This document shows positions 1 through 52,892 of a stretch of DNA of 64,000 nt, piece by piece. The stretch lies in assembly GCA_965178125.1 (NCBI GenBank), contig OZ237768.1:186001-250000 (forward strand). Direction: 5' to 3'. The notes under the pieces are model-generated. The model saw only the letters and a list, made by a program, of their open reading frames with translations. It was not told the origin of the DNA and did not search any database. The stretch comes from Bilabrum cf. latius. Its lineage: Eukaryota. Made by a program: the position numbers and the translations under genes. How positions within the stretch are numbered: the first letter of the stretch is position 1; every line of letters begins with the position of its first letter.

Positions 1-1
1 C

Positions 2-3000
2 GCATTGCGCGCCTCTGTGTTCCAGGGCGGGTCAGTTGGCGGTGGTGGTCTTGGACCACCGATGGGGAGAGAGGGTTCCATGCCGCTGCAGCTGTCTGGT
101 TCGAGGCAGTCGTCAGCCAGGGACGTGCTGGCCTCCCAGTCTATGGCGGGCACGTCAGGAAGCAGAGGGGTGGCTAGTGCAGATAGGTAGGACGTAGTGG
201 CAGTCGCAGCTTGCGTGAATGCATCCGTGAGTCGCCTTCTAGGGGGAGAAACGGGCTGGAGGGAGCTGGGTGGCAGCCCAGAGGAAGCAGCCGTGGGAGG
301 ATACGCGCGGCATGCCGCACTCGCACATGCGGTGTCTTTCGTTGCGAGCGTGGCTGCCAGCAAGTCTGTGACCGCTGATCGTGCGGCAAGAGCTGCCGCG
401 GTGGACGTGTGTGAGCATGCGGTGACTGTTTTGCTGGAGTCTCTCGGCAACGAGAAAGGCAAATCGAGCAGCGGAATGCAGCATGCAGCGCTTGGGGATC
501 AAGGCAGTGGCACGGCTCGACTCATGTTCCTGCTGATTGCTGCGGCTAGGCTGCCCGTGGATGTGGCGGCCTTGCATGGGCCTGTTGGAGGGGCCCGATG
601 CTACCTGGACAGGCAAGGCCGGTTGCCGGCGTGGGTGTTTGCAGCTCAGGATCGTTGCTTGGAGCGGGTTCTCGGGTACATGTCTCCCACCGGGCAACAG
701 GAGCTGCTGCATATGGCGGGGCCAGCGGGAGCTCGGCTACTCGCCACCACGCCGGGGATCGGGCCTGGCACCAAGCCCTCCATGCCGTCTCGCCTTGGGC
801 CAAGGTCGGTCAGTAGCGGCAGCGGCGGCATCAGCGGGTCTTAGGGGAACCTCAGCAAAGGTTCCTGGAGGCCATGTGGCGCTGCTGGCGCTGGTGGCCC
901 GGCTCGCTCTATGCTGCAAGAGCTGGTGGCGATGCTGGTGCAAGGCGAGGGAAGGTAGGCGCAGCTAGAGGCAGGCAGGCTCGACCCCATGGCAGATGAT
1001 GCTGCCGGCCTAAGCAATCAAAGTGGGATGCGCCTGCCCTGGGCGAGGCATAGGCTTGCTTCTCAGCACGCAGGCACCGGGAGTGCTCTATAGCCATAGC
1101 CTGGTGAGGCATCGCCGACCACTCGCTGGTCCACATCGCGCGCAGGAGGCGCCGTGGAGCAGGCCATGGTACAGCTGCGGGCGCTGGCGGCCCGGCACGA
1201 AGACCCCGACCGGTCTGAAGGTGGGAGTTCTCGCTCCGGGTCCTCACGTTCCCTGCTCCGTCGGCTTTTTGGAAGACATAGCACGCGGCAGGTCGGCGAG
1301 GACGAGCAGAAGAGGGCAGCTGGCACCGGTGGCGGCGTGGCTTCCCCCGTACAAGGACAGCGACCCCCTCGCGCTGCGGTTGGCGCGTCTGCGCGGGGCC
1401 ATGGCGCGCAGCTTCGTGCCCTGCAGCAGGCAGCTGTCATGCACGTGGTGGCAGTGGCACAGTGCGCTTGCGGTGTACTGCAGCTGGCATCCCGCCCTGA
1501 GTGCCCAAGAGACACCGCGCATTCCACCTGCATGCAGCTGCTGTCGGTGCTTGGCTCCGACCTGGCGGCATGGCCGGAGGTGCGCAGGGCGAGGGAACAA
1601 GCCAGGGCGTCTGCGCGGAGGGAGGGAGCGGTGCGTCCGCCCGAGAGCACGCGGATGTAGCGGCGGCATGCAGAGCTCCGCGCCGCATCCCATCTCGCCG
1701 TCATGGGCCACATGATGCGGGCAGCTTGTTCCCTGGCTGGCCGGTCCAGCCGGTCCACGATGGCGGTGAATCGTCTGCTGGAGTCAATGTACGTGTCTCC
1801 ACAAGAGGAGGCCAGGGACAGAGGCAGCCTTGGATCGGTGGGTCGGATGGATGGACCCGCGCCGATGGTACCCCGTGCGATCGGAGAACTGGCACAGGCC
1901 GTGGTGGCATCTGGGGAGCAGTCGAGGCACAGGCGCCTCGTTCTCCTCTAGACCCTGCTGGAGCGGACATGCGAGCTGACCACTCGGTTCGCAGGGGATG
2001 CTATCGCTGCCTACGGTCGACCCGCGGGGAGTATCATGCAGGATAGGGCGATGCAGGGGGCAGTGGCAAAGGCTCAGGGAGGCAGATACCTTGGATTGAA
2101 TGCCGCGACGTTAAGCATGCGCGACATAGCAGCTGCTGCGTCATCATCACCCCGGTCGCGCCCCGGTGCCCCAGAGAGCATCAGAAGCCGGGCATCTCTG
2201 GGGCGGGGGGAGCTCCCCGCGCTGGAGACGGTCGGTGAGGAGCAGAGCAGTGCGTTGCACCCAGGGAGCGGCAGTCCTCGAGAATCTGAGACAGGCAGCG
2301 ACGCCTGGGATTCTCCGGGGATTGGGGGGGATGGGCAGCTGTGGGGCGAGGGCGCTGGCGTGGACCTGATAGATGCAGACAGACCGGCCGGCGCACCATC
2401 AGCAACTGCGGTGCAGCACGCAGCAGTGGCAGCGGCAGCGCTGGCTGCTGCGTAGCTCGTGCCATCTGTGTGCCGCATGCTGGAGCTGGAGCAAGAGTTG
2501 CTGGATGGCCTTAGGCACGAGCACAGGAGCGGCCCGAAACCCGCTGCGTTCTCCGATTCCGTTGCATGCATGCAGATCTTCAGGCGGCTTTGGGTAGGAA
2601 TATCCGTGCTTCGCTTGGACGATGGCAGCATATGGGGGCACGAGCTGGCCGATGCTTGCCGCCGGCTTGCGTCGCTGACCCCTCCCCTAATCCTGATGCG
2701 GCAGCACGGCGATTTGGAACAGGCTCGGCGCGCTGGTGGGCGCGCAGGACGCGATGGAGGCCCCTCGCCCGATGCTCGAGGAAGAAGGAAGCGAGGGGGG
2801 GGAGTTGGGGGCGGGTCGGAGGCAGAGTCCAAGGGTGGGGATGGGATCGATGAATAGGAAGCCCGCCCATCGAGACACGGTGGTCCCGACTCGTCACACC
2901 GCCCAAGAGACCTGCAGCTGAACCTGGATCTGCTGATGTCGTCTTCCATGCTACCAGAGGGGCACGGGATCAGCCAGGGACTCGTACAGAGCCAGGTACA

Positions 3001-6000
3001 GAGGTTGTGCAGCGTGCTAGGCCCGCGAGATGCACCTCTCCTACAGCAGCTGCCCCCCTACGCGCTCGTGTTTGCGCTCTCCGTGTGCAACTTGGAGATG
3101 CACCGCGCCTCGCTGCCCTTGATCGCCAGCAGTGGTGCCACCAGAAGGAGCTGGCACTCGTCACCCACGTTTGTCGGCGTGTACCGCGTGCTGAGGCGCT
3201 GCTGGCCCGGTTCCATTGGACTGCTGCAGCCCATCTCCGGGGTTGACGACCACCCCGCTAGGTTCCTCCTGGCGGCGACCATGAGCAGGATTGCAGACCA
3301 CGTTTTTGCTGGGTTTGCGACCAACATGCACCGGTATCCGTGTGGCCACGAAGGAAGAACTCGGAGCCTAAAGCACCACGTGGCCTTTCTGATCGCCACC
3401 GCTGGTCATAGGTTCGTTACCGTGCGAAGAGCGGCTGCGAGGCATCTGGTGCTGCTTGTAGAGACGTTCCCAGAGCTGCTGTGCGACGAGGATATCATTC
3501 AGGTGCTGCTTGGCACCGTAGATGCGCTCGGGCTCAGGCTTCTAGCGAGCAGCAGGGAAGAGTGGGGAGGCTCCTGGCCACCCATGAGCAGGGTCCCTGG
3601 GGCGCTCTCTACCTCCCAATCGTTCGCCGGGCATCAGGCTACTGTGGACGGGCGCCGGACGGGCTCTCTTGGGGTCAAAGCGGTGCCGCACGGCGTATCT
3701 GTGGATGGCTCGCTGTACGAATCAGAGCGGAATTCAGGGCTCCAGAGCAGGGCCGGTGTCCCGTGGGGCAGCGTGCTGGTGGAGGGGTCGCCCTTCGCAG
3801 TGCAATGCCCCACGACCCGTGAAGCTCTGTCTCTGGTGTTTGCAGATGTGGCAGAGCTGGCCGCGCAGCATCTGTCCCGGGCCCACGCAGTTGCGCCGAG
3901 GAGGCTGGCACAGCTCGCTGCACGCAGGCTTGCTCGCAGGGCTAGCGGCATGCTCCCGCCCACACAGGCCTCCATGAGCATGGGCGATGCCGTGGGACAC
4001 TTTGTCGCGACCCAGGGAGGGCATGCAGGCTCATCTGCGGCCGCGGCGCGGGTGGGTGGCGCGGGCCAGGCGTCAAGCGGAGCACCCGACCCGTTGCTGC
4101 TGCGGGCCCCATCGGATGCGCTCCTCTCGCAACCCCTCGGTTTGGTGAAGCGGCTGGTAGGAGAGAGGGAGCGCGTTGCCAAGACGATCCTCGCGTCGCA
4201 AGGGGGGCGCGTGCTGCGGAGCAGCATGCCGTTCGGGTGGGCAGCAGCGGCACAAGGCGTACCCACACCCGTCTTCTGGAGGCAGTCCTCTCTGTTGGAG
4301 CAAGTCGCGGTGGAGAGGCGATTGCTTGCGGGGTATGGCATGGAGGGAGCTGGGGAGCAGGGAGCGGGGGCCAGGAGTACCAGTTTGGTCACCTTGGGCC
4401 TATCCAGCTCGGTGCTAGCCACCGTTTGGGGCTCGCAGGCCCCTGCAGAATCCATTCTGCCGTCGATCGTGGACAGAGCAATGGCTGTAGGCTAGTACAC
4501 AGGTGCAGCTGGCGAGGTGTCAGTTGGTCAGCACGGCGGAGCTGGCGGTCTGCTCCCACCCAGGTTCGTGGCTCTGGCCGCCATGCCTGCCATGGAGCGC
4601 GCTGCAGCGCACTGCACCTCTCTAGTGGCCAGCTACCCTTCAAATGGCGTGAGAGCAGCCGGAGCCGATGCCCTGGTCACTCGTCCGCTGCGCCGGACGG
4701 ATAGCCAGACCACAATGAGCGACTCTGTGCGAACAGGCACGGCACCGGGCACGGTCACTCGAGCACCCAGCGTGAAGGGGGGCCAGGGATCCGTCGTCGG
4801 CCCCGGGAGGAACCGCCGACAAGCCACTGCAACGGGAGCTGCCTCGGATGAGCAGCTTTTGAAGCGGCTGGTGCTCTCCAGTGCGCCGCCCACTGCAGTT
4901 GGTGTTGCGATGGATAGGACACCCGCGGTCGATAGCCAGCGAGCGCAGCTCCGTGCGAGGGAGGTAGGGATTGTGGAGGGTCTGTTCCGTGCATTTCGCA
5001 CCTCTGGGGTCGGCGCATAGCAGGTGGAACGAAACGCCCGGTCGAGTGCAATTGCTGCTGCCAGTGGGCCGGCAAGCAGTAGCATATACGCCTCGTTCAT
5101 CCGCCAGACGGTTCGCCGGGCCCGCGAGGAGGCCTTGGCCCTGCATGAGACTTTCCTGCGCCGCGCAGGTCTGTCCTTCAGCAGTGCTTCCGGCAATTCA
5201 GCACCGTACGATCAAAGTGAAACCAGTGCCAGCCCTGGGACGGAAAGAGCCCAGGAGTCAGCTATCTCTAGCCCTCGGAGGGGCAGGTCTAGACGGGGTT
5301 CTGTGGCAGCAGCCGGTATCGGCTCGAGCACGAGCTCGGGCATGGCCTCACCAGTAGCACCGGAAGGTCGCGCCGGGTATTCTGGTCTGTTCTCCAGAAT
5401 GGCATTGCTGTCGATCTGCATTCGGAGGGCGGCGCAGAGGAACCGATCGCGCATGCAGGAGCGCACTGCAAGCAAGGCCCTTGAGATCGTGGACCGTCTG
5501 GCTGCGCTGGTCGTTTTCTCGGGTGGGCGAGACGAGAGGGGCCAGGAGCTCTTTGGAGACCCGAAGGAGCACAGCGGGGTAGAATTACTTCGTGAGCAAG
5601 CGCTGGAGCTCCTAGGGTGGATGCCAATGCTGTTGCCCATTCCTGCTGTGTCCTACAGCTGCGCCGATGCGTGGTCTTATGTCGGGGCGAGTGGGGCGAC
5701 TGGCGACCGCCTTGCGATTCTGAAGCGCTCGTGCAGCGCTCTTGCAGCGAGTGCTCATCTCGCAGTCGGGGCGTTCGCAAGCACGACTGCCCGGAGGGCT
5801 GAGGCAGGCGTGGCGGGCATGCAGCAGTCAAGCGCTGGGTCTGCCTCTGCCCCGTCGTCACCGACCGACCTGATGCGCGCCCCTCTATCTGAGGCATCGT
5901 ACAGCAGAGACGTTGGACTCGATGCACTTGCAGCGTCTGCGCAGCCAGTTCGTAGCATGTGTCTGCCTTCTCATGACCTGGACGGGCCGGTGGCTGCTCG

Positions 6001-9000
6001 ACTCCAGTACGCGCCGCCTCACATGCGGGCGGAAGAGGGTCAGGACGTGATTGCGCGGCCGGAGATCCACCGCCCCTGGTTTACGTACATTGAGGAGGAG
6101 CTTAGGGTGGCAGCGCATGCCTGTCCCAAGTCGGTGAGGAGCATCGCATTGGCGCTATCGTCTTGTGCCTAGGAGGGGTGGCGCGTGGAGCAGTCATCGC
6201 AAGGATTTGACGTCGGGATGCGGCTTGTGTTCACTGGCTTGCTGGCCATGCACGCAGAGTACTACAGGCAGCAGGTGGATTTGGGAGGCAACGATCCGGC
6301 AGTCGAGCGCTAGGCCGGCTCTCCGACGGAGGCAGCCGAGCCAGGTTCCAGTGACCATGGCCCGCCCTCTCTCGTGTCATTCGCCGCTCTGGACCAGATC
6401 GGGGTGCTTCCAGTGGCTGGACCTGCCCATCATCGAGCTTCTTTGCCGGCAGATCTGCTGACGACAAGGACCTGCGATGAAGACCGCAGTGCCGCGAGTG
6501 GTGCTGGCATGGACCTGCTGTCGCTGGATGCCCCCAGGACCATCCCAATCTGCTTGAGATCCCAGGCACCCACGGCTCTGCACGCCTCACTCTCCGGTAA
6601 ATCATCATCCCACGGGGCGCTGGTCATGCAGCCGCCCGCCACGTCAAGGGCTGGCTCGGTGGGCGTAGGTCAGGCGGTCAGCTCACCCATCCCTGTCCGC
6701 AGGGTGTCCTCGATCGGGTCAACCACGCGGCTCAAGCACTGGACGTCGGGCTCGGATGAGATGGCAGACTTGCTGGGCCTGCGTCCGGTCCTGTCGCGGC
6801 AAGGGAGCAAAGACCGGAACCAGCTCGCCAGGCGGGGATCGGTCGAGCTCGTGGCCACCCTGCGAGCGCACACAGAGGCCGAGTCTGCGCCTACTGTCGG
6901 CGGGGACGGCGCTTCGATGGGAGAGGCATGGCAGAACCTGCAGCCAGACTGGACATCCGCAAGGACCCAAGGGCATGCAGGTGCTGGGCCGCCTCGCCGT
7001 GGTGGTTACATTTCCCCGACGGCGAACGGGCCCTCTAGATCGACTGCTAGGCGGACTGCGATTGGCGTGGGCCTAGCCGCTGATCTAGGCCGCATGCGAC
7101 ATGAGTTGCTTGACTGCGGACTGCGCCTTTTTGCCGGCCAGCCGGTCTGGCATGAGCCGATCATTGGCGGGAAACGGGTGCGGTAGCTGCATGCATACAT
7201 GGCTGCTGTGGTGCGGCTGCTGTCGCTCGATGCCTGGTTCTTGAGAGCCCAATCCGTGATGGAACGACCAGAGCCAGGTTCATCAAGACGCGGTAGCAAG
7301 TCGTCTTCTATCGGCACCAGAAGGTCAAGCGGACGTCGCTCGTCAGGGGCATGGACTCACTCAGTCATGCCGCCGTCAGCGCAAGTGCTTGCCTCCAATG
7401 TAATCGCAGCTGCCCGTCGCTTTGGCGCGTCTGGACCCCACGAAGACACCGTGCCGCTTGGTGGTGATCACCTGGTGCACCCAGAAGCGACGGGAGCAGT
7501 ACCACCAGCCGTGGATAGACTTGTGCTATCGCTCAATCAGCCTCCTGTACATCCTGGAATGGCGGACGGCTTGCTCGGGCAGCTGGGCAGGCCCTCAGGC
7601 CACTTCAAGGCAGCTCTGAACACCCAATGCAGGCACGCGGCAGAGAGCTCCGACCTTCTGTCCCTGCTGATTGCGCATGAGAGCGACCGCATCGTGGCAT
7701 GGCATAACCCCTGTGGGCACCAAGAGAGGGGCATCCCCGGTCAGGAGGAGGTGTCGCTCGAGGACGCCTGCAGGAGATGTGCAGCCGAGGCCAGATTGGG
7801 GGGAGCGGTGGACGCAGGAGATCTGCACGGTGATATCGGTGGTGAGGGAGCGGCGAGCGGTGCTGGTGCTTCGGGTGGAAGCGCATTCGCATCTCTCGGG
7901 CGTCTGTTGCGGGACGGAGAGTGGGCGGTTCTAGCCAGGTGTGCGGGCAGGCACTCGCAGTCTTTGCTCGCGGCCGTGTGCGGTCGATTCCCCGGCGTGA
8001 CACCGCTGCGAAGGCATGCCGTGGACCACTTGGTGGACGTGTCTCTGGGTTAGGGGAGCGGGAATCACGGTGACATGCCTGCCATGCGGGACCATCGTGC
8101 GGCCGCCATGCTGATGCTTCATCCTGCACTTGCGCTGCGGGCGCGTGGTCAGGACCTGTCAGCAAGGTACTACCGAGCTCTACAATTGCGCAAGTCAATG
8201 CTGTGGGGCGACGAAGCCGCTGGCAGCGGGGCTGGCGGTGTCGAGTCCAGAGGAGATGCTGGACCCGGCGGTGATTTGAAGTCGCATGGAAGCGCTGCCA
8301 GCCTTTCAGCAGGCCAGCAGGATTCGTTACCTGCTGCTGCCACGCATGCTCACCACAGGGAGCCCCGCACCGGTGTGGATCGCCTTGGCATGTCGGTGGC
8401 CCTGGGTCTAGTGGGCCCTGCAAGCGCTCAGTTCGCCGTCAAGAGCACGATCAAGTGTCTCGCGCGCCGTGTGACCGGGCGGCTGCTACGGGCGGTCGGT
8501 CGGGCCCCAGCCACATCCATGGCCACTGCCCTTGGCCTGCTGGCGCGTGTGTCCCACCGGTCAAGCTACCGGTCCTCGCAAACGGCAGCGCCAGGCGTGG
8601 CGGCGTGGACGGCTCGGTCCATTGCCAGCGCTGCGCCGTCGCTGGTCGCCCTGGTGGTGCCGCAGGTCGTGCAGGCGCTGCGGTCGGACACGCACGGGTA
8701 TTCCAGGAAACTTCTGGTGTCTGCCTCCAGCAAGACGGCCATCACGGCGCACCAGGTCCTGTGGGGACTCGCTGCCGAGTCAGAGATCACGGCGGCGACT
8801 GATCCAGATGCGGAAGGAGGCCACGGAGACGCGGCAAGCGCAGGCTCTGGGCATGCGGGGCGCGGTCGAAAAGGAGACGGCAGTGACGCGCACGGCTTTT
8901 AGAAGCAGCTACTTGGCCAGGATTCGCTACCCCGCGCCGCCAATCGCGTGGCTGCCGCAATCCTGGCGTCGCTGGGCAAAGAGGAGCGCGCCTCGTTTCA

Positions 9001-11803
9001 CATACAGTACGCATTCTTTGACAGGGTGACTGACATATCCCGGAGACTCAAGGAAGAGTGCTCATCCAAGCCGGAGCGCAACAAGCACATTGCCACCTGC
9101 CTCAAGCAGCTCTTCCGAAGGGTCAAGGAGACCCGCATTGACGCCGTGAACGCCGCGATTGATGCCATGAAGGAACAGCAGCCAGACCGCACCAAGCAGG
9201 CACTGGTGCTTCGGCACGGTCATCGCCTTCCTGTACCAGGAACTGCGGCCAAGCGAGGAGGAGCAGGGGCGCCAGGGCCCCACGGCAGGAGCAGCAGGTC
9301 GGGCAGCATGGTCCTTCCGTTCATGCAACCTGGTGGCAGCGGGATTGGGATAGGATCTGCCACAGGCGGACCTGCCAGCACCCAGTTTGCAGGGAGCTCT
9401 ACGGGAGGCTCGAACCCCCTCCGTCGTGCATGCTAGGGGCACGACCCTGTCTCCAGAAGGGAGGTCCTTGCGTTCGCTTGGGCTGCGGGGGGCCGGCGGC
9501 AGGCAGTCACCAAGGTGACTGAGGCAGCCGCGGCGGAAGCGGCACTGGCCCAGGGCCATGGCCAGATCGTGCCCGGAAGCGATGGGCACAGGCAGGCAGC
9601 CGGCAACTTGGCGGTGCTGCTGGAGGACCAGCTGCTGGCGCGGCACGGGGGTCTGCCGTCCACCTTCGAACCTCTGCTGTACATGCCCACGCAGCCTTAG
9701 CTTCGCGTGGTCTCGGTCGTGATGGACAGCGGGCGTGCGATGCAGAGTGCAGCCAAGTGCCCCTTCCTGCTGCAGTTCAAGGTTACCCCCTATGCCGGCC
9801 CTCTGATGGAAGAGGGTGGGACTGAGGCAGGAGCTGGTGCTGATCGAGAGACGCCAGCAGGGGGTGCAGTCGTTCGTGGGCCCGGCCCGGGGCCCGTGGT
9901 GGGACTGGCGGACTTGGCCTCGAGTGCCTCCAAGCGGTCCGTGTGGCAGTCGGTCAAATCCACGGGGTCGGTGCTGATGCTCAAGGTCAGAAACAGGATC
10001 AACGCGGCGTCGGCGCACATCAGCGTGGGAACGACGTCGGCTGGTCGCATGATGCGGTCGGCCATGGGGGCAGTGCGGTCGAGGATTTCACGAGTCGGGG
10101 GGCGGGATTCCCAGGCCGTGGAAGAGGCGACGAGGGCGAGGGCAGGCAGCAGTGTGGTTCGGGCATCTGTCGGCTAGGCGCGTGGTTCGGATAGAGACAG
10201 CGACTCTCACGCTGGTCAGGGCCCTAGCATCGACTCGCCCCGTTCTCAGTCCAGGTCCTCGGTCGGCCCTTCGCGCTCTGGCAGCGTGGCGCCTGTGGAG
10301 GGTCTGGTTGGTGACACTGGTACCGGTGCTGGCGCTGGTGCTGGGGCCGGAGAGATCGATGAAGAGGAAGAGGCGTGGCCCTACAGCGCGGAGGCCCGTG
10401 AGCTGCAGCCCGGAGCCAAGGACAGGCAGCGCAGTGGCAGGGCAGCCGGCCCTGCCGAAGGCTCTGTCGGGGTGGAGGTGGAGCAGGGCGGTGGTGGTGC
10501 GAGGGGCGACGTCGGTGCTAGACCACCGCTGGAACTGGACGATGTCGATCTTGCCATTGGCATCGAGGCAGATGGCAATGCGGCGGGCGCGGGAGGCGGG
10601 TTGGGGCAGGGTGGTGTCGCTAGCGGGACAGGGACGTGGTTCGGGGGCAGAAGCAGCGGCAAGCGCGTCGTCGATGAAGCGCAAGACGAGGAAGAAGACG
10701 ACGGCTTCGTTGACAATGCAGCCGTGGATATTGAGGCGCGCGAGAGCTTTGCCAGAGGAAACAAGCGCAGGCAGGATGCCGCGAGGCAGGCAGCGAGTCA
10801 GTACGGCGTGACGAGCGGAAGATCCACCGGGTATGGCCACCGGAGTGGGCGTCGCAGCCGCCGCCGAAGTATGTCAAGGTCAGGCTCCATGGCTGCTGCA
10901 GCTGCAGCCGCGTCTGCAGGTTCTGGCGCAGGAGCCGGGAGCGGCGGAGCCATGCACATGTCCATGTACCGCCCCCTGACGGCGAGCGCAACCGCCGCCT
11001 GCATCTTCAAGGTGTTTGACGACTGCAGGCAGGATGCACTCGCGATTTAGATCCTGCGGGCGCTGCAGGTGCCATTCTCCCAGGCCCGTTGCGGGCTCAG
11101 CCTGACTCCATACTCCGTCATTCCCTCTCGAGTAGGCAGCAAACGGGCTGAAGGGGGCATTATCCAGTGCGTGTCTAACGCCAAGTCCCTCGACGAGATC
11201 GGCAAGGACGGCAACGCCAACCTGTACCACTACTTCCGGCAGAAGTTCGGGAGGGTGGACGGCCCGGCCTTCGAGGAAGCCAGGCGGCAGTTCGCGGGGA
11301 GCATGGCAGGGTACGCAGTGGCGACGTATCTGCTGTGGGTGAAAGACAGGCACAACGGGAACATCATGGTGGACGGGACCGGCCGACTGATCCACATCGA
11401 TTTCGGATTCTTGCTGGGCATCAGCCCGGGGGGCAACCTCGGGTTCGAGCAGGCTCCCTTCAAGCTGACGTCAGACATGGTGCAGATCCTGGGTGGTGAC
11501 CCGGGGACGGACCTATACCAGGGCTTCCAGGAGCAGTGCGGGAGGGCGTTCCTCTCCGCGCGGGAGACAATGCCGGCCATCGAGGCGCTGGTAGGCGGCA
11601 TGGCAGACTCAGGCCTGCCGTGTTACCACTTCCCTGACACGATGGGGAAGCTGCACCAGAGATTCGCGCCGGATGCGGGGCCCAGGGAAGCAGCCAAGGT
11701 GTGGAGGGGCAAGGTGGAGGAGTCGCGCGTGTCTAGCACCACGGAACTGTACGACGGGTTCCAGAAACTGACCCAGGGCATCCACTCGAGTGCCTGGCAG
11801 TGA
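2..11803 (+). CDS. PI4KA: Phosphatidylinositol 4-kinase type III alpha (PI4KA/Stt4-like); 5' end outside the window; >3,900 aa with TAG read as Gln
   Basis: One frame (start mod 3 = 2) is open from base 2 to TGA 11801-11803 apart from 20 TAGs: 188, 842, 956, 1091, 1097, 1658, 1949, 2453, 2855, 4493, 5018, 6170, 6311, 7184, 8051, 8900, 9434, 9698, 10175, 11048. Motifs: VPQVVQALRSD, YMPTQP..SGRAMQSAAKCPFL, IFKVFDDCRQDALAI(TAG)IL, SMAGYAVATYLLWVKDRHNGNIMVD, IHIDFGFLLGISPGGNLGFEQAPFKLT. Confidence 0.93.
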
Positions 11804-11878
11804 TGGGTTACAGAGGTGACGTTCACGCGCAATTGGTCAGCACAGCTTGAAGAATCACATTCTCTCTTTCAACTACAA

Positions 11879-12128
11879 TCAGCCACACGGCCCATCCATG
11901 ATCAAACTCCCCATGTTGAAGATGCGCCCGATGCGATCCCGCATTGACATGGACCTGGACGCAACATCACACAGGTTGCTGGCCGCGTGGTTCATCAGCC
12001 ACGACTCGAGCGCAGTATTTCGCTTCGCGGTGCGGAATAGCCGCATCTTCGTCTTTCGTGTTGGCTGGCAGCCCGTGGATCGCGCGGCATGCCGCGGCGT
12101 AGTCCTCTTTCATCCCCAGGTGAGCGTG
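11879..12128 (-). pseudogene. Diverged, 5'-truncated and frameshifted copy of the 3' part of orphan gene 12695-13441
   Basis: Aligns by eye with 12695-12968 (e.g. gcccgtggatcgcgcggcatgccgcggcgtagtcctctttcatc). It has a 23-nt frameshifting deletion bounded by CGA microhomology and ends ...DGPCG-TGA at 11881-11879. Confidence 0.75.
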
Positions 12129-12132
12129 TCTA

Positions 12133-12638
12133 ACACACACCACACAGTGGTTTTAACCCAATATTGATCTGGATGCTGCTCGCCGGCTCCGTTGCACGGC
12201 ATGCGGCGCCGCAGCGTCTAGATCTAGACACTCGAGGCCTGCCTCGTTTCAGTGGATGAGTGTGTCACCCAGAAGTACGAAACTGAGATTTACATTCATT
12301 CGTCCGCAGCTCATGGATTGCCCCAGTACAATGCCACCACTGCCGCCGTCCCGGCCAAGACGAACGCTGTGAGCCCCGGCCGAAGCCAGGCCCGCGCCTC
12401 CTCCAAGCCGCAGCAGCACATGCGGCCCGTGGCCAGCAGCCTCTTCCTCTCATCTTCTCCCGCCTGCTCTGCATCTTTCTCTGTCTGCAGCTTCTGTTCC
12501 TGCAGAAGCTCGCCAGCGAGGCCCCACCGGAAGGTCGTGTTCTCCACTTGTGACTCACTCGGCGCCGCAGTGGCGAAGGAAGCGACCAGCAGGGCGCAGC
12601 TGGCGGCCAGGAAGTTGATCGCGGAGAAATGCATGTAG
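12133..12638. repeat. ~505-bp near-identical direct duplicate of 13476-13985 (3' end and downstream flank of the SLC5 gene)
   Basis: Direct comparison shows about 4 substitutions and one 4-nt indel. The ORF track gives near-identical peptides for 12252..12638 and 13599..13985. Confidence 0.95.
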
Positions 12639-13475: not shown

Positions 13476-13985
13476 ACACACACCACACAGTGGTTTTAAC
13501 CCAATATTGATCTGGATGCTTGCTGCTCGCCGGTTCCGTTGCAAGGCATGCGGCGCCGCAGCGTCTAGATCTAGACACTCGAGGCCTGCCTCGTTTCAGT
13601 GGATGAGTGTGTCACCCAGAAGTACGAAACTGAGATTTACATTCATTCGTCCGCAGCTCATGGATTGCCCCAGTACAATGCCACCACTGCCGCCGTCCCG
13701 GCCAAGACGGACGCTGTGAGCCCCGGCCGAAGCCAGGCCCGCGCCTCCTCCAAGCCGCAGCAGCACATGCGGCCCGTGGCCAGCAGCCTCTTCCTCTCAT
13801 CTTCTCCCGCCTGCTCTGCATCTTTCTCTGTCTGCAGCTTCTGTTCCTGCAGAAGCTCGCCAGCGAGGCCCCACCGGAAGGTCGTGTTCTCCACTTGTGA
13901 CTCACTCGGCGCCGCAGTGGCGAAGGAAGCGACCAGCAGGGCGCAGCTGGCGGCCAGGAAGTTGATCGCTGAGAAATGCATGTAG
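13476..13985. repeat. Source copy of the ~505-bp duplication
   Basis: Near-identical to 12133-12638. Confidence 0.95.
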
Positions 13986-16873
13986 TGCACGCTGAAGAAT
14001 CCTGCGATCCCCCCAGTGATGCCCCCGACGTGATGATCGTCCGCCCCCTGCTCCCGGGTGGCAGCAATCACAATGTCGCCGATGAACCGCGTCAGTCCCA
14101 GGGTCCATCCGACCGCCAGCCCAGCGATCGCGCCCCAGTTGTTGACGCGCCTGGAGCACGCACCCCACACGAACACCGCAGACACCGGCCCCGCGAAATA
14201 TGCCGGCGGTTTCTGCACGTACGCAAACAGCTGGTCTCCCATGAGTGGAATGACAGGCAGCCATAGGATACTCAGGACGCCCATGCCCAGGATGGCGAGG
14301 CGGCCGATCCACACCGTCACGGCCTCAGGGGGTGTGGCGGGCAAGCCGAATAGGGCAGCCGCCGCCGCCTCCTCAGCTGCTTCCAGAACGCCCCCCCCCT
14401 GCTGCTGTGGGGCGAATGCCACCGGAGCTGCAGTAGCTGCGCATGCAGATGCTGCCCCGGTGCCAGCATCCCGCCCATCGCTCCCCTTCTTATCAGCAAT
14501 AGTGGCGCATGCCTTCCCTACCCGTGCCTGCACCATCGAGTCACCTGCCGCAGCCACTTCTACTGACCCTCGCAGCTCCTGTGACATGTCCCGCGCGGGG
14601 AGGCCGGCGCTTCCCGGGTGCTCTTCGCGATCATCATCGCTGCACGATCTATTTAATGCAGCAGCAGTCAATCCACAACCACCCTTGCCCGAGCTGGGAC
14701 CAGTGCCGCGACCCAGCTCCTCATCTACCGCGCTGCCTCTGTCTCCTCCAGGCGCTGCCCTTCCGGGGCTCGTCTGGGCCTGCACCAGCATGGCGGTCTC
14801 GTTGGCCGACCCTGACGACGCCTGTCTGCCCCTGTGAAACGATGCAGAGGTGGATGAAGCGGCCCCTGCCCCGTACAAACCACTGGCATTCAGCTCTAGC
14901 TCTCGCTCATATGCACTACCATCGCCATTGGCCTGGTCACTATCATCACCAGGCACCAAGGTCCCCAGGTCAGCTTGCAGGCTGCCGCCATCTTCTCCCA
15001 TCGAACTGCTCTCCATCGCGCCGCGATCCACCTTGCTTGCATCAACATGCGTTGCGCCCTCCCCCGAGCCTCCCGGCGGCAAAGCACGTCCGTCTCTAGC
15101 CCTGTACCCCGCGCCTGTTGCTCCCCCCTTGCCCCCTCCCTAGCCTAAAGCGCCCCCGCACCCGCCCTGGCAGCTCCCGCAGCATGCCCCCCCGCACCTG
15201 TCCACAGCGTCGTGGCACTCCAAGCACCTGTTCTCGCAAGCCGCCCTGCAGCAGAGACACCTCGAATACACGTCCAGGGCAAATACCGTCCCCGCGCTGT
15301 TGAACACAGAGGCCAGCGAGCTCATGAGGCTGGCGAGCACCGCAGCCAGCACGAGGCCCCTCGCGTGCAGCGGCAGCACGCGGCCGATGAGCCACGGGTA
15401 GGCCCCATCGAACACGATGGGAGGGATGGATTTGGTGGGCAGGAACGAGGGCAGGATACCGTCCTAGGCCATTAGGGAGCGGGCGGCGAGGCCGGGGATG
15501 ACGAGCAAAAAGGGTGGCAGCAGCTTTAGGATGGCAGCGCACAGCGTGCCCACCTCGCCGTGGGCTATGTTGGCTGCTGCCAGTGCCCTCTGCGTGATGA
15601 CCTGGTCGCAGGCCCAGTACCAGATGGCCATGGTTGGCAGCCCAAAGACCATGGCCGTCCATGGGTAGGTCCCGTCATCCACGGGCCTCCAAAGGCTCAT
15701 CCTGTCGTAGCCCTCGTAGGGGGCGGCCACGTCTTGCCACCCAGGCCAGGCGGCACCCATGGTACTTCTCGACGTGCCCGAGGGCGTCGCGGACGAGTTC
15801 CCTCCTGCTCCTGCACCGCCTTCTCCTGCACCTGCGTCCCCATTGCCAGGCCCATCCCCGCAGTACGCGTGGTAGAGCCCTTCAAGGGAATCGTCGTCCA
15901 GGACAGAGACAGCCCCCCCGTCAGGGTCCGTGAAGATGAGCGTCCCGTTCGACAGCTGCCGCGTGGAGTCACACAGCTCCTGCACCCAGTTCGGCGTGTT
16001 GGACCCGCCGCCCGGCCCCGAGCCCCCCTGTCCCCCACCGCCCGTCTGGCCCGCAGAGGTGCCACCAGCAGCGGCGGGTACAGCGTCGGCGTGGTCGCAG
16101 AATCCCGAGAGGTCGTCTCCTGCCCACTCCTGCCAAGTGGGCGCCGGCATGGGGTAGGCCTCTTGGGAGGGGGACATCCTGCCGCTGATCTCGGATATGC
16201 CGCCGCTCTCAATGACGGCGAAGATAAGAATGAGCAATCCACCGGTAAACAGGACGGCCGTCTGCAAAGTCTCGGTCCATACCACTGCTTTGAGGCCGCC
16301 CACCGCGGTGTATCCCAGAGTGAGCAGGATAAGCATCACCACGCTGACCAGTGGGCTCACGGCAGAGCCAGAGACGACCGCAAGAACCAATCCACCCGCG
16401 TACAAGGTGGCCGATATTTTGGTCAGCACGTACAGGACGAGCGATAACGCTACAACACTCTATCGAACACACTCCCCGTATCGAAGCTTGAGATACCCCA
16501 GTGTTGTAGACACGTTGCTTTTCATGTAGACTGGCAGCATCACAAAGGCAAGAAACACTATAGGACCCGTCGCGAACCACTCGAATAAGCTGACTGCCAC
16601 ACCAGAAGAGGCGGCGGTTCCAGTCAATCCAATGAAGTGCTCAGCCCCTATATTGGACATCAGCAGCGAGCACGCCACCATCCACCATACGACACCCTTT
16701 TCAGCCAAGAAGAAACTCGTTTGTTCACCGCTAGACCCTTGCGATCGACCCGCAGACCAAGCCACTCCAATTAAGACGACGAAGTAGACACCAAGCGACA
16801 TCCAGTCAACGAACGAGAAGCGCAGGCTATCAGCGTCGCAAGCACCGTTGGATGATTCAGAATTGCTGCTCAT
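13658..16873 (-). CDS. Sodium:solute symporter (SSF/SLC5, SGLT/SMIT-like), ~1,071 aa
   Basis: Single frame with 3 TAGs (16462, 15466, 15142), ending in TGA. Motifs: FFLA..VVWW..SLLMSNIGAEHFIGLTGTAA, YTAVGGLKAVVWTETLQ, WYWACDQVITQRALAA, LASLMSSLASVFNSAGTVFALDVY, FVWG..SRRVNNWGA. Confidence 0.92.
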
Positions 16874-17075
16874 ATTTAATATTAACAGAGGTGAGGCACT
16901 GCTAGCGCTTGCCTACGGGCGGAAATCAAACGGGCTACGCGCAACCTCGCCGAGGCTGTGTGATGACAGGATCGCGACGGTTGGCACGATGACACGATGA
17001 TGCTGGCAGCCACCAGATGCGTGCCACGCAACGATGGGACTGAATCACCTCATATCAATCGCAATTACAGCAGCG

Positions 17076-18757
17076 TCACTTGCCCTCATCCGCGCTGGCA
17101 CTGGCCCCCTTGCTGCCCCCCTCAGCGGGCGCCGCCTGCTCCTCCTCCAGCTTCCTCGTCTCGGCCACAGTCTGGTCCGCGGTCCCCTTCAGGTACGACC
17201 CGGCCGCCCCAAACATGCTGCCAAGCCCGCCCACAACAGACCTTACGGTGTCGTTCTTCATGGCGGCCTTGCCAACGGAATGGGCAGCGCCCACGGCTGC
17301 CTGCCCCGCCGCCTTGGCTTTCCCGCTCACATCGTACTGCGCGTCAATGCCAGCGATCCCCCCGGCCGCGGACTTGTACAGCCCCTGCCCCATCTCCGTG
17401 AGCCCAAACCTCGCATCGATCGACCTCACACCCCCCTGGATCTTCTGGCTCAGGTCATCGATGGCCTGGCTGACCCCGTACCTCCGGTTAAAGGACTGCA
17501 CGTACACGGTCGCGCCCTCGAGCCCCTTCTTAGTCGTCACATACCCCTGGGCGAGCATCTTTGCGATGGCCTGCTGCGCCTCGCTGTACTTGGTCGCGGG
17601 GGTGGAGGCTGCGGCTGCAGCAGCGCCAGCGCCCGCAGCACCAGCGGCTCCAGCGCCCGAACCGCCGCCAGCCGACGAGGACCCGCCCGCGTCACCGCCG
17701 GCATCCGCGCCCGCGTCCTTCTTGTCAGGATCTTCCGCACCTCCATGAGAAAGAGCTGATGCCAAGAAAACGTGCACGGGTGCTCCGTTGATCTCCTGCT
17801 AGTCCAGCGAGACGGCAGTGGCTGCGGCCGCGAGATCGTGGAAGACTACGATTGCCAATCGCTTCTCCTTGTGCCGCACGTCTGCGATATAAATAGTACA
17901 AAAGAGGGAAACGCATCAACATGGGGGGATCCATCGTCTGGAAGGCTCGAAGAACACAGCACACGTAGCTCTTCGATCCGCTGCGCAACCGTTCTTGCTG
18001 CCTCACCGCTCTGTGTGATGATGCGGGATACCGATCCGCACCGGCCAAATACATCGAGTAGAATCTCTTGAAGCTGTTGCGGCGAATCGCCGGCCGGGAC
18101 GCCGGTGGCCACTACAGCTCTTGGAATTTCTTCTGCCGAGACGAAGCCAGTGTTTCCAGCGGCAGCGCCGCTCCCTCCTGCGGACCCTCCTGAAGCACTC
18201 GCCGCAGCACCAGCTGCTGTGGCATCCGCATCAGAAGGAGCATCTCCAGCACCACTGCCCGATGCAGCAGACGATGAGCCGGCGTCTCCAGCGCCAGTGC
18301 CTCCACCGGAATCGCCGCCGTCGCCCTCCGCGCCAGCAGCCGGCTTCTACGGCGATACTGGACCGAAACCAGGTGTCACCTTGACAGCCTCAGGTTCTCG
18401 CACGGGTTTTCTATGGGATGAGGCGCCAGAGATTGATCCAGTAGACGACGCAGGGGTTCCAGGTGCCGCCGCGGACGCGGGAACCGGGGTAGCAGCGCTT
18501 GGAGTTGTAGGACCGCCAAACCCAGGCACAGATGCAGGTGCAACAGCATGCACGGTAGATCCTTCTTCTATTCCAGCGCCAGCGAGCGACTGGCTTTCGT
18601 TGATCAGGATACCAGCAAACACCAGCGTTGCACTGCTCCACCCCAGCTTAGCTAGAATAACTGCGAGCAGATCCTTGCCATTACTATCACCATCAACCTC
18701 AATGTCAAATTGCGGGGGGCTCTCAAGGCCTTTTGTTGGGACTACGGTAAGTTTCAT
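17076..18757 (-). CDS. Ubiquitin-like domain + RRM + BPA1/Vip1-like C-terminal helical region, ~532 aa; exons 18757-17965 and 17881-17076
   Basis: The N-terminus is UBL-like (MKLTVVP...LVFAGILINESQSLAGAGIEEGSTVHAV). An 83-nt GT-AG intron rebuilds an RRM (LLDVFGRCGSV...LAIVVFHDLAAAATAVSLD(TAG)QEINGAPVHV). This is followed by AIAKMLAQGYV...IDARFGLTE...KAAMKN, resembling plant BPA1/fungal Vip1. It has 2 TAGs (18349, 17801) and ends in TGA. Confidence 0.75.
17882..17964 (-). other. Spliceosomal intron, 83 nt
   Basis: GTGTGC...ATATCGCAG, pyrimidine-rich and low in GC; removal joins the two RRM halves in frame. Confidence 0.8.
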
Positions 18758-18942
18758 TCCTTTCTTTAGACTCCAAGTGTGATGCGGGTTTGTGCTGTTT
18801 CGCGCGTCTTTCCAGGAACAATTCTTTGCTTCATCACCAGAGTTTTGGTTGCGACCGGTAATTGCGACCAAGCCGAACCGACATGATGTCGGGTACTCTT
18901 TTAATATTTTGGAGGGCGGTTAGGCCAAGGGCAACGTTGTTC

Positions 18943-21900
18943 ATGTTTTCATTTTCTGATTCTTCGCAAGGAGCGCGGGCACTGCAGAGTTCGCATGAAT
19001 CATTGAGGGGCTACGAGTAGCGTGCCAGCCTGAAGCAGTTGGAAGCCGATGCCAAGCAGTCAGCACCAGAGAAATCCGCCCAAAGCGCTGACTACGTTCT
19101 GATCTCGCTGGCCAGAATTCACCCGCGCGTGTCGGCAACAGCCTGTTTCTCTCTTGCGGAGTCGTCGTCCCTGCAGGGATTCCAAAGTGCGTGGGACGGT
19201 CGCAGCGACTGGCGCTGCGCACTGCCAGGGACCACCTGGTGTGAAGTGCCAGCTATGATTAGGTTGTTTGCCATACGGCTAGCTAGGGATGCTTTGATGC
19301 AGCGGCATGTACTCAGCCTGCTTTCTGGATATGAGCATCAAGTTGGAGCAGCAGCTGCTGAAGATGCTGGAACGATTATTGTGGATGCCTCTGTGCCAAT
19401 GTGCCCGCTATCCCTAGCAATTATTTCTGCTGCGAGGTGCTGTGGCTATTCCGTTGTGACACCGGGTCTTTCTTCTGCCTCGAGCACGGAGTCGGCACAA
19501 CTTCCGACGGTGGAGGCCTTGGATCTGCGTGGCAGGCAGGTGATTGCAGTCCTCACAAAGGGAAAGGGCCGAACTTCTTCGTGGATCAAGTATTTTCTTA
19601 CGTCATGGAGTGCTAGGCCTGCTCGGGATACATCAAAGTCGAGCACAGAGCGAGCGAGCACGCATCCTGCCAGCATCCCGACCATTTACGAGGTGCCCGA
19701 GGGCTCTCTAGAGGTCGCGCTGAGCAAGGTAGATTTGCCAGAGCACGCGCACCTTGGTATCCCCACGCGCAGCAGCGGGGCTAGGCATGACGGACCTCGG
19801 TCCAATTGCGGAGCAGGTCTGTTTGCTGATGCCTTGCTAGACGTTGCAGCCGGTAACGAAGTCAGCTTTGCAGTCCGCGGCAAGGGCATGGAACATGGTG
19901 CTCGTGAAAGCGCAGAAGCTGAAAGCCTTCCGTTATTATTCGGTGGATCCCACGAAACAAGTGACGCAAGCTCCCCCACTGCTGGCACCATCCGAGTCGA
20001 GGCGGTGCTGCTGCAGGAAGCAGGAATGCCTGCGGTAGGAGCCGCTGACGTTGGACGCGGCACGCCAACCAAGAGGGCAGGCCCCGGCCGCACCACAACC
20101 CGAGGACCTAAGCGCGTGCGAATGGGCAGAGGAGGCGCCTCACCTCCAGGAGGCGCCCTGTAGGCGTCCCACCGGCTGGGGAGGTCGAGGGGCGCTGGCA
20201 GGATGGTCGGTTAGTCTACAAGGCGAGGAGGAGCCGCTGGGGTACTTGACGGTGTGGCGAGTACGGGCAGGTCGGGAGTTGTTCTCGGCAGTAGCGTGGC
20301 CTCGTTTGCTCGCATGGGCGGGCAGCGTCACGAGGAGGTCGAGGAGTCAAAGCACGAGCACGAGCACGAGCACGACCGCAAGGGGGAACCGCTGCTCCAG
20401 CGCGGTGATTTCGGCAGGCACAGGCTAGTGTGCAGGCTGGACCTGCTTGACGACTCCATGGCACCACAGGGGGCAGATCGAGCTGAACCCAAACCCAGTG
20501 CCAGTCCTGAAGTGTGGGTGCAATCAGTTGTGTCTTTGGCTGTGCGCGGCGAACCAACGGACACGAAGGACCTGCGTGCGGTGCAGGCACTTTTGGCGCG
20601 TGACATGCAGGCTGCTGCTCAGCTAGAGGGGAGTGGAGGCATCCGTAGGGGAAGGAAACTCGGTGAAGCGGGCGGGCCCAGCCGTCTAGGACCCGGCAGT
20701 AGGCGCACTAGTGACCACAAAGGAGAAGGTGGGCTGGTGAGCTGGCTGGAGAAGCTGAGCGGGCTTGAGATCGACCGTGATGACGACAGGGGCAAGGCAG
20801 CTTCGGCTGGGCTCTGCCTGCAGTACAGTGCAATCGAGGCTGTGCAGTAGAGGAGCGGGAGAATAGCACAATAGGCCTGGGGCAGGGTGCAGGAGCACCT
20901 GATCGCCAAGACGCAAGGGCAGGATATGCAAAATGTGCCGGCCGGCAGGCTGCAGGCGTTGTTGCATCAGGCCATCCAGCGCGGCTTGGAAGACACTTGG
21001 ACCGGCAGGATCGGCATTCAGCGAGCCTGGGCTGCGGATGCTTCTGCGCATCTCACTTTGCTTGCCATGGCTGCAATGGGTCGCGCGGATGCCGCCGACA
21101 CTCGTACGCTCGAGGTGCCGATGGAGAGCTCGGCAGAAGATGGTGGGTAGCATCCGAAGCAAGCGGGCCTTGAAGCTGATTTCGCGGGGTCAGTTACACG
21201 AAACGACGCTCTACTTGCTCATGGATCGCACAAGGATGCATTATATCATGCGGCCGGCGTGATTGGAGCAGTCGCTGCTGTAAAGGCGTGGCTTGCCGAA
21301 TAGCAGCGGCTGCAGCAGTCGCCGAGCCCGAGGCAGCCGAGAGGCGGAGCATCTGGTCCTGTGAGGCGTCGCATGGAAGTTGACCTATAGGCTGTGCACG
21401 CGATCGAAGTGTTTCTGCAGGTGCCCTCAGGTTTCATGCGACTGGGTCCTGGTGAGCTGGCGGTGTTGACTGGCCTTTGGGCGCTGGGGGTTAGGATTGA
21501 GGTAAGCGGTGGCGATGACAGCGGCCCCCGGGGGGCTACATCAGGCAGGCCGCAGCTCCCTGCGGACGAAGTGCATGGGGTAGATGTGGATGAATGGGGG
21601 CTTGTAGCTGGTGGTGAGGCTGGGCCATTGGCCGCTGGTGGGCGATCACCGACGGGTCCAGAACTCGATGCACCCACCCAGCATCGCCCTTCCCTTATCG
21701 TTCGCATGGGAGGAGACAAGGTGATTCAGGACATCGAGAGTGCCGCTTAGAAGACAGCCTCTGTGTCGTTTACGACGGGTTCAGCGCTGCTGTTCGGTGC
21801 AGCGGCATCGAGACGTGGCGGCGGCGGCGTGTTGGGGTCTATCGTTGGCACGCGGTCGGTTCGATCTGAGCTCCAGCGCGAGGAGACGGTGCACAGCTCG

Positions 21901-24567
21901 ACCACTGGGGAACAGATTGGGAGAGGGCAGGACCAGGACCAGGAGTCGGTTGCAAGTGCATCGCATGACGGTGCCCTGCAGCTGCATGATTTGGATGCAC
22001 TATCAGAAGCGCAAAGCACCAATGGAAATGCTCACGAGGACGACATAGCAGCCCAGGCCGAAGATGGTGAAGGAAGTAAGAGCAGGTCGAGCCGTGCTGC
22101 AGAGCTCGGGTCAAGATCAAGGGGCAGAGGGCCGACAGGTGGACGAGGACAAGGAGGACTGCAGAAGCACGCGCCCGCTGCTGCGACTAGTGCTGCTGCT
22201 GCTGGTGCGGGGGAGCGCCAACAGGGCACCAGCGGTAGGGTGAATGAATCGGACCCCTGGGTCGGTGCAGGAGATGAGGACCTGTTCAGGCAGCTCCCGC
22301 CTAAGCTTCCCGCTCCATCTGCGCAGGAAAAAGTACTTTTATCGAAGAGGCGCGGGGCAGCCGATCCAACAGCGTCGTGGCTGCAGCGTGACGGCAGTCC
22401 TGGTCGGCACGATAGGCAGCAGGATTGCGAGGCAGCAACTGGCGACAGACAGCCGCAGCCATCAAAACACGGCGCACCTCGGCCCACCAGCCCCAGTGCT
22501 TTGCTGAAACGAGCGCGCGAATCGCTCCAGGACAATTCCGCTGCCGAGCCCGATGGGGCCCGCGGCGCACCAAGCGACCACCGCAGCCACAGCCACAGCC
22601 AGCAGCAGCCTCGATGGAGAGACTCTGCCGCAGTAGCCCGTGAGTTGACGAACCCAGCTGCCCACGCCAATCTGAAGGCGAGCGCTTCCCGAAGAGCCAG
22701 CAAGGGTGCCCGCCGGGGCCCGCAGAGGCCGAAGCGCAAGCCAAAGCCCAAGCCTGGCTGGAACGGCTTCTTCATGCGTGGAGATAGCAAGGACGACGCC
22801 GAAGACGCGAGGGCAAAGGCCGCACAGCGGTCCGTGTTCCGTACCGACACGGCCACTCGAGAGCAGTGGAAGGAAAGCTAGAGCCCGCTGAGAGAGAAAC
22901 AGCTTCAGTACCTTCGGAGGAGCAAGCGCGCCCAGGACAGACCTGCCGGGCGGGTCATTCGCAAGCCGCAGCTGCCGCAAGAGGCAAAGAAGAGCTTCCA
23001 CAAGCAGCGGTCCCACAATCAGGGGGGCCGCCACCGAGGAGGTTCCCGCGGGTGTGACGCCGACCTCGATGGCATCGGGGTGCCAGTCGAGGTGGTGCAC
23101 GTGCCTGACGACTCCCAGCAGCGTGTCAGCAGGACAAGCATCCTTAGCTCCTCTGCCCCGCGAGCCATGATAAGAGCCAGGATGCAAAGTACTCCGGGAC
23201 AAGACTCTGTGGCAGTGGCCGCTAATTTCGACTCAATGCATGATGGCGCGCTGGCAGCAAGGGAAAAGACCGATTCAGCAGACGAAACAGTTCGCAACCC
23301 GCGGCAAGTCACTGCATGGCCAACTACATCACTGGACCATGACGTGTCGGGCAAGGACGACCGCACCGTGGGACATGGCGAGGCATCCGCCGGTGCTCCC
23401 GCCCCAGTCGGCTCAGCCCCGCCACTGACCCCACGCCTGACCAAAGGCGACATGCCTCAGGTGTCCCCCTCTTATACACCGTCCAGCTCCCGTGCCGATA
23501 GCCGTGGCGCGCATTTGGGCGATAGCGCCACCTCGAAACACAGCCTCTTTCCGAGCGTGAGGCATACCCAGAGCGTAGAGGACAGCGACGGCAAAGGTGA
23601 GGAGGAGGCGCTGACTCGCGATGGTCAGCCAGAGTCAGGCCGCGAAACGCCTCAGTCCCCTGGTGCAGGTCAGGCGGGCTCGTAGCCGTCCAATGTGGGA
23701 GGATCCTCCGTCGGTGGCACGTCTGCTCGTCCAAGCGGCGTCCCTTCAACGACCGGAATCGATACATAGGCTGCTGCATCGGCCAGCAGTATCTCCCAGC
23801 CTACTGGCCGGTGGCCCTCAGCAGCGCCTGCCCGGCCGTCCATGTACACGGCGCAGCCAGCCACAACGAATGCATCTCCTAGGTATGCGAGCGACCATGG
23901 AGCCCACATCAACGAGATGGGCCTTCTTTCGGAGAGGAAGGTGTCCTTTGCCGCCGCTGTGGACCTGCGCACCTTTGACGGCAGGGCGCCGACTCACGCC
24001 AGCAAGCCGTCGGGTATACAACAACGAGGTAGCGAGCCGTCGGGGGGCGATATGCCAGCTGCGGAGGATGGCAGAGGGCCAGCTCGACCCCAAGCCCCGC
24101 TTGCCAGCAGTGACCGACCGGGGCCAAGGGCCCCTGCCATCATTGGGCAGTTCAAGGGGAGGGCAAGAGGGGCAGAGCCAACCCGCGATCCACGGTCGCA
24201 TGGAGGGAGGGACCAGGGGTCGGAAACCCAGGCAGGGTTCCCATCTGCACCTGCACCCGAGCAGATCATGAATAGCAGCACAGTTCCAACTCCGTCCACA
24301 GAGCAGCACACCGGGCAGCAGCGCAGTGAGCTGCGCGACCTGCAGGCCATGTCTCGCGCTGGCCTGCCCGCATCGCCGCCTCGAGGCTCCAGCCGAGGGC
24401 CGAAGCCAATGCCAGCGGCGACGAAGGATATGGGAATTCGGCTGATTGTAGACGAGCAAGATGTCAAACCGCTGCGGTGGGACCTGCCCAGGACGCCCTC
24501 AGGCGGTTCCGTGTCGAGACTTCTGCGTGCCTATGCGAGCCGAGAGGGAAAGAGCGGGACTGGCTGA
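18943..24567 (+). CDS. Large hypothetical protein, ~1,874 aa, low-complexity C-terminal half
   Basis: One frame runs from ATG 18943 to TGA 24565-24567 with 12 TAGs (19018, 20161, 20212, 20848, 20872, 21148, 21301, 21388, 21748, 22879, 23683, 23767) and no TAA or TGA. No family recognised. Confidence 0.75.
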
Positions 24568-52779: not shown

Positions 52780-52892
52780 ATCTTTTTCAAAACGCGCCCA
52801 AGTAGCGATGGACTGGAGTTGCTCTTGCGGGGGCAGCGCGCTCATCACATGCCAACCAACAAGAAAAATGTTGCTTTGGGCCATATAGCACC

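Follow-up and report, generated by a model that had tools for sequence, protein, structure and literature searches.

At the left end of a 64,000-nucleotide stretch of contig OZ237768.1 from Bilabrum cf. latius (GenBank assembly GCA_965178125.1, positions 186,001 to 250,000; called the window here, in whose own numbering all coordinates below are given) lies a gene for a large protein that resembles the type III alpha phosphatidylinositol 4-kinase, PI4KA or Stt4, and in whose frame the stop codon TAG occurs repeatedly. This open reading frame (ORF) runs on the forward strand from 2 to 11803, is open at the left window edge and contains 3,933 codons, among them 20 TAG, from 188 to 11048, with neither TAA nor TGA before the first TGA, which closes the frame at 11801-11803. 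The TAG at 11048-11050 stands on the invariant Gln of the kinase motif DDxRQDxLxxQ, and the reading of this codon, together with that of TAG in the nuclear code of the organism at large, is the subject of the present analysis.

If TAG stands for a residue, the protein is at least 3,933 residues long, and a database fragment of a relative (P0133) reaches upstream of the window. The C-terminal part of the protein matches the Pfam profile PI3_PI4_kinase (E 5.4e-35, 121.9 bits compared to a cut-off of 27.1), and among the chains of the Protein Data Bank (PDB) PI4KA ranks first (6bq1_A, 3.2e-54), before PI4KB (5.8e-50) and Vps34 (3.7e-28), so that the window kinase is nearer to PI4KA than to either PI4KB or the PI3Ks. 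With PI4KA it shares the catalytic domain, the DDCRQD form of the motif, which is common to most of the kinase loci that we found in metagenome contigs, and the DRH and DFG motifs. Unlike PI4KA, of which the full-length chain 9b9g_A counts 2,102 residues, the window protein exceeds 3,933 residues and carries long low-complexity inserts. Two further domains scored below their Pfam cut-offs, PI3Ka (PIK) with 19.8 bits compared to 31 and PI4K_N with 17 bits compared to 22.4. The C-termini of the PI4KA-like protein and of the RPF1 protein encoded further on in the window align to the ends of their homologues.

The motif stretch DDCRQDALAI-TAG-IL can be read directly from the forward strand at 11018-11056, where the 39 bases GAC GAC TGC AGG CAG GAT GCA CTC GCG ATT TAG ATC CTG translate, from 11018 onward, as DDCRQDALAI*ILR; the start coordinate 11021 given by the first-pass annotation of this DNA is that of the second GAC and thus 3 bases off. 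In the phmmer match to PI4KA chain 6bq1_A, the window residues ddcrqdalaiXil lie against DDCRQDMLALQII with zero gaps and with X, the residue encoded by TAG, over Q, which confirms the ungapped spacing that the annotation had described at this site. Its further argument, that no intron can remove the TAG, stands insofar as it rests on the ungapped alignment, whereas the absence of introns offers no basis for it, since at least one spliceosomal intron is likely in this genome. The catalytic motifs DRHNGN (11345-11362) and IDFGF (11396-11410) follow on the same strand, 3' of the TAG; termination at 11048 would therefore delete both, as had been predicted.

Scanning metagenome contigs for the kinase domain yielded 80 loci, and a local tblastn against these gave matches that span the motif in 71 but not in the other 9. 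The column of TAG 11048 is Q in all of the 71; between them these loci show 26 different 20-residue strings, with DDLRQE-type kinases among them. Human PI4KA likewise has Gln in this column, as do two close relatives of the window (L001 and fragment P0003, see below), which bears out the original observation that TAG sits on the conserved Gln of the PI3/PI4-kinase motif. It is the sole TAG of the PI4KA-like gene that is well covered by distant homologues, the other 19 sites being covered by 0 to 3 aligned sequences. Because no other TAG in the window falls in an invariant column, it was fair to call this the best single-site evidence; the observation is correct, and the site is the strongest single one in the window.

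Across the eleven long ORFs of the window, 19,201 codons in all, TAG occurs 82 times in frame and TAA and TGA not once; TGA terminates all eleven and TAA none of them. In the two other frames of the same ORFs, of about 19,200 codons each, TAG was counted 131 and 130 times, TAA 37 and 31 times and TGA 263 and 298 times. If TAA were a further Gln codon under the bias between CAA and CAG, about 17 in-frame TAA would be expected, compared to the zero observed. These counts argue that TAG is a sense codon, that TAA is not and that TGA is the terminator. When TAA was translated as well (NCBI table 6, UAR=Gln, where UAR denotes UAA and UAG), the 3' ends of all ORFs were unchanged and three ORFs became slightly longer at their 5' side. 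Taken with the residues opposite TAG, described next, it is in our judgement highly likely that TAG encodes Gln in this nuclear genome, that TGA terminates and that TAA is not a sense codon, which is the pattern of NCBI table 15, in which TAG alone is reassigned to Gln. The restriction of the Gln assignment to TAG is well supported, although 64 kb alone does not prove it.

Two kinds of close relatives were compared with the window: the metagenome loci L001 and L002 (57.5% and 53.3% G+C), which carry the same PI4KA-like gene with 79% identity in the kinase domain and about 58% over 1,247 aligned residues, and Logan protein fragments at 89-99% protein identity, labelled R90. Protein database searches for fragments of relatives returned 5 and 4 matches, with low-complexity words dominating the candidates. 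The frame of L001 itself contains 9 TAG, 0 TAA and 0 TGA in 1,536 codons and then ends at TGA. At window TAG 11048, L001 has Q (CAG), and so has fragment P0003 (98.9% over 283 residues), in which just two other residues differ; P0135, a distant PI4KA homologue of 3,019 residues (38% over 843), has Q at both 11048 and 8900. The TAG at 8900-8902 (+), in the sequence HGF-X-KQL, also faces Q in L001 (CAG), and fragment P0005 (90%) ends precisely here, which points to a stop-type codon in common. A third TAG, at 4493-4495 (+), lies opposite a Gln of P0002 (94%), which for its part ends at window TAG 5018, and P0130 (91%) ends at window TAG 2453. Such database fragments of relatives stop at TAG as a result of gene calling with the standard code. 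The converse was seen at window CAG codons 11066-11068 and 11483-11485 (+), which in the kinase domain stand opposite TAG of L001 (local identity 0.65 and 0.85), and at CAG 8150-8152 (+), where P0128 (91%) ends inside its own 3975-nt contig, placing a stop-type codon of the relative opposite CAG. P0133 (89% over 44 residues) ends opposite CAG 137, either at a stop codon or at the end of its contig. TAG and CAG are hence exchanged between the window and its close relatives in both directions. In poorly aligned stretches L001 has A at window TAG 8051 and N at 10175, and its own remaining TAG codons face either gaps or, where local identity is as low as 25-33%, A, P and A.

As a control for these comparisons, we recorded what faces the ordinary Gln and Glu codons of the window. 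In the R90 fragments, Gln codons face Q in 61 of 65 cases and Glu codons face E in 63 of 64 and never Q; in L001 the corresponding figures are 22 of 38 and 31 of 43. TAG faces Q, Q, S and R in R90 and E, E, Q, Q and G in L001. Based on these empirical spectra, the summed natural-log (ln) likelihood was highest for Q (-22.8), followed by E (-43.3), S (-43.5), L (-43.9) and R (-44.8), values that depend on the pseudocount. BLOSUM-based likelihoods gave the same order for Gln and Glu, with E 9.6 units below Q on the pairwise evidence only, 11.2 below once the two column profiles were added, 5.8 below without the PI4K site, 5.3 below in a strict set of verifiable items without 11048, and 4.0 below in a worst case without 11048 in which both ambiguous fragment ends were taken as Glu. 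Leu, Tyr and Trp were far below Gln in every BLOSUM-based version. Separately, we observed that in the R90 fragments Q is kept at 2 of 4 TAG sites compared to 61 of 65 CAG/CAA sites; small as these numbers are, the lower conservation fits a tolerance of TAG mainly at less constrained sites.

Mechanistically, by analogy with what is established for other lineages in which UAG or UAR means Gln, reassignment would involve a tRNA-Gln whose anticodon CUA differs from CUG by a single base and decodes TAG, and an eRF1 that presumably no longer recognises UAG. TAG 11048 would then supply the Gln that is invariant in the N-lobe motif of PI4KA, and with TAG read as Gln the PI4KA-like kinase would be made full length.

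Several observations weigh against Gln as the meaning of TAG. Scans for tRNA genes and for Rfam families detected nothing in the 64-kb window or in L001 and L002, and the eRF1 gene does not lie in the window. An invariant column underlies just one TAG within 64 kb. L001 has E at window TAG 7184, E (GAA) at 9434 and G at 9698, and in a full-length realignment one of its own TAG codons stands opposite a window His; taken alone, its empirical spectra come close to a tie, with Q at -10.6 compared to E at -11.9. Among the fragments, P0128 has S at TAG 8051 and P0129 (94%) has R at TAG 9698, and both P0129 and P0132 (78%) end one residue past their alignment opposite a Glu codon, GAG 9824 and GAG 3560 respectively, be it at a stop codon or at the contig end. 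In the RPF1 (Brix) ORF (52767-53855, +), which is read through TAG, the TAG at 52992-52994 in KVKRS-X-V falls in a variable, mostly Glu column, with E in 69, Q in 24, A in 8, S in 4 and K in 4 of 120 homologues; the residues of three PDB chains at this position are L, E and Q. The first-pass annotation had proposed this site as a second one to compare, and it does not support Gln; the site does not discriminate and, if anything, leans to Glu. In the sodium:solute symporter (SSF) ORF next to the kinase gene (13658-17044, -), likewise with TAG read through, both alignable TAG codons face residues other than Gln in variable columns, 16460-16462 (-) a Val of SGLT1 and 15464-15466 (-) an Asp or Glu.

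Part of these observations would be accounted for if TAG encoded glutamate, as in the UAR=Glu codes of peritrich ciliates and Blastocrithidia, in which case the PI4K site would be a Gln-to-Glu replacement. The Glu-rich RPF1 column, the two E of L001, the E or D of SGLT1 opposite TAG 15464 and the two fragment ends opposite GAG are all in its favour. Yet Glu at 11048 would break a column in which all 71 loci have Gln, within a domain where P0003 and the window disagree at just two further residues in 283; Glu codons of the window practically always face E in the R90 fragments, where TAG faces Q twice and E never; and the ln-likelihood of Glu is 4.0 to 11.2 below that of Gln with BLOSUM and about 20 below in the empirical control. 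We thus consider glutamate improbable. Any other residue, be it Leu, Ser, Tyr, Trp, Lys or Arg, is more improbable still. A single Ser (8051) and a single Arg (9698) in R90, and a single Lys (9698) in P0135, speak for such an assignment, whereas none of these residues appears in the invariant column of 11048, and all are at least 13 ln units below Gln in the pairwise, combined and no-PI4K-column tallies (all of which took two unverified fragment ends as Q) and about 20 units or more below it in the empirical control; only in the strict tally without 11048 do Arg and His come nearer, at 6.6 and 7.3 below Gln. Finally, that TAG still terminates, the frames being pseudogenes or rescued by readthrough, RNA editing or an intron, draws on the occurrence of at least one intron in this genome and is scarcely credible against 82 TAG and no TAA or TGA in the frames of 11 genes, the same pattern in the relative L001, an ungapped protein alignment across 11048 with conserved catalytic motifs downstream, and TAG positions that relatives have in common, with fragments ending at 2453, 5018 and 8900.

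Reading TAG as Gln, with TAA outside the set of sense codons, connects the window to a kind of code that is already known, because UAG-only reassignments to Gln have precedents: passages of PMC11687900 list the fornicate Iotanema spirale, the ciliate Protocruzia tuzeti and two groups of phyllopharyngean ciliates. The same passages give UAG as Leu in an uncultured rhizarian and as Ser in Scotinosphaera, UAG as Glu together with UAA as Lys in one uncultured ciliate, and UAR as Gln in many ciliates, ulvophycean green algae, Hexamita, Streblomastix and Amoeboaphelidium (PMC11687900), while UAR is Glu in Blastocrithidia according to PMC12153298. Like the UAG-only Gln codes of Iotanema and Protocruzia, the window has TAG as a sense codon with Gln as best fit, TAA not as sense and TGA as terminator. 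Unlike Iotanema and the ciliates, it combines about 65% G+C, very few introns, giant low-complexity proteins and neighbouring genes on opposite strands with no TAA terminator in 11 genes, and its best named RPF1 matches are stramenopiles, neither ciliates nor fornicates. With the UAR=Gln codes it shares a stop codon read as Gln and, as the likely route, a change in the anticodon of tRNA-Gln; it differs from them, as TAA is also sense in those codes, by having 0 TAA in 19,201 codons. The UAR=Glu code of Blastocrithidia and the UAG=Glu code of the ciliate resemble the window in that TAG is sense and in that some TAG sites of the window stand opposite Glu. Different from both, the invariant Gln column and the exchange of TAG with CAG favour Gln in the window, and TGA is a stop there, not Trp.

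The affiliation of the organism was approached through RPF1, a single gene. Its best named matches, at 46-54% identity, are from Tribonema, Saprolegnia, Aphanomyces, Pylaiella and Phaeothamnion, with animals, fungi and others lower. A tree of 41 rows picked from 120 matches (26 named, 14 of the 16 top unnamed ones, and the query), whose named rows are without alveolates, rhizarians, haptophytes and green plants, places the query beside unnamed metagenome proteins, on that side of a split (Shimodaira-Hasegawa-like approximate likelihood ratio test, SH-aLRT, 96) to which all stramenopiles belong. A stramenopile-related placement is a weak lead suggested by this sequence comparison. To our knowledge, no earlier nuclear stop-codon reassignment in stramenopiles is known, and in the part of the literature that was covered no report was found of nuclear UAG reassignment in stramenopiles or labyrinthulomycetes. 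Provided that the lineage is without earlier description, the window represents a new member of a known code type. We tentatively suggest, as a possibility with somewhat less than even chances, that this GC-rich, intron-poor and possibly stramenopile lineage is new as a code deviant and that UAG-only reassignment to Gln is common to it and at least two related metagenome lineages.

If the placement is true, the organism would be among the very few non-ciliate cases in which UAG changed its meaning and UAA did not. A parting of UAG from UAA is rare in nuclear codes, with only a handful of cases listed in passages of PMC11687900, and bears on how stop codons are captured. Moreover, the idea that such changes are driven by base composition and by the disappearance of codons finds a natural test in a GC-rich genome where TAG is sense, TAA hardly ever used and TGA the one terminator observed. 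On the practical side, whenever this organism or its relatives are annotated with the standard code, genes are broken at each TAG, and the database fragments described here are examples.

The window as a whole has about 65% G+C and is compactly spaced; both strands carry genes, and inserts rich in Ala, Gly and Ser enlarge the proteins. TAG is read through in the ORFs 18862-24567 (+, 1,901 codons), 27268-29520 (+), 53952-55025 (-) and 61521-63746 (-), to which no identity was assigned, as well as in a Raptor-like ORF of 7,335 codons (29826-51833, +), to be compared to about 1,300-1,600 residues in solved Raptor chains. In the comparison of the Raptor-like protein with the PDB, zero TAG fell within the aligned conserved blocks. 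Both this giant intronless ORF and that of the kinase (2-11803) display Ala/Gly/Ser/Gln-rich inserts between conserved blocks. On the minus strand, an ORF with EGF-like domains according to Pfam (24662-26224) overlaps by about 137 bases, in a different frame, with an ORF without a Pfam match (26088-27068) that on visual inspection looks like the C-terminal portion of the former; the two could belong to a single gene interrupted by an intron or a change of frame, or else be tandem paralogues. A further minus-strand ORF at 17540-18919 contains two TAG and, judged by eye, a ubiquitin-like stretch at its N-terminus, with no match in Pfam.

The RELCH-like ORF (55665-61211, +), also with TAG read through, owes its label to the first-pass annotation, and Pfam did not confirm it. 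Its TAG in ALELH-X-EI (55429-55431, +), the third site proposed by that annotation, lies in exon 1, within a short ORF at 55330-55752 whose frame (55330-55751 for the exon) is another one than that of the long ORF starting at 55665; the exon 1 peptide had zero matches in Pfam or the PDB. Between them, GTGAGA stands at 55752 and CCCGCAG ends at 55864, and excising these 113 bases joins the two frames exactly, with exon 2 taken from 55865-61211. Judged by these sequence signals, 55752-55864 is likely a spliceosomal intron, so that the genome appears intron-poor and not intron-free.

As to the source of the DNA, window 1-12500 was compared with contigs of the four runs X1, X5, X6 and X8, and the same sequence was found in runs of three differently coded organisms and studies. 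Contigs of run X8, labelled 'algae metagenome', cover the kinase gene with a relative that shows about 10% base differences (1,164 differences), and in run X1 the contig depth of the window sequence was 6.5 compared to 18.5 for another long contig. Because of the occurrence across differently coded runs and the lower depth in X1, the organism of the window may be an associate of the sequenced host, not the host itself.

A scan of genome contigs gave a single match, an unrelated one with 36% identity. Locus L081, PI4K-like with 36% identity, lies on a 3.4-kb contig in a bin labelled as an uncultured actinobacterium and is likely a misbinned eukaryotic contig. In six other loci of the metagenome scan with PI4K-type kinase domains (L065, L069-L072 and L077), on AT-richer contigs of 40-47% G+C, some 260 in-frame codons include TAA as well as TAG, unlike in the window; two of them, L065 and L069, carry TAG on the Gln of the RQ[DE] motif, and all six probably derive from UAR=Gln organisms.

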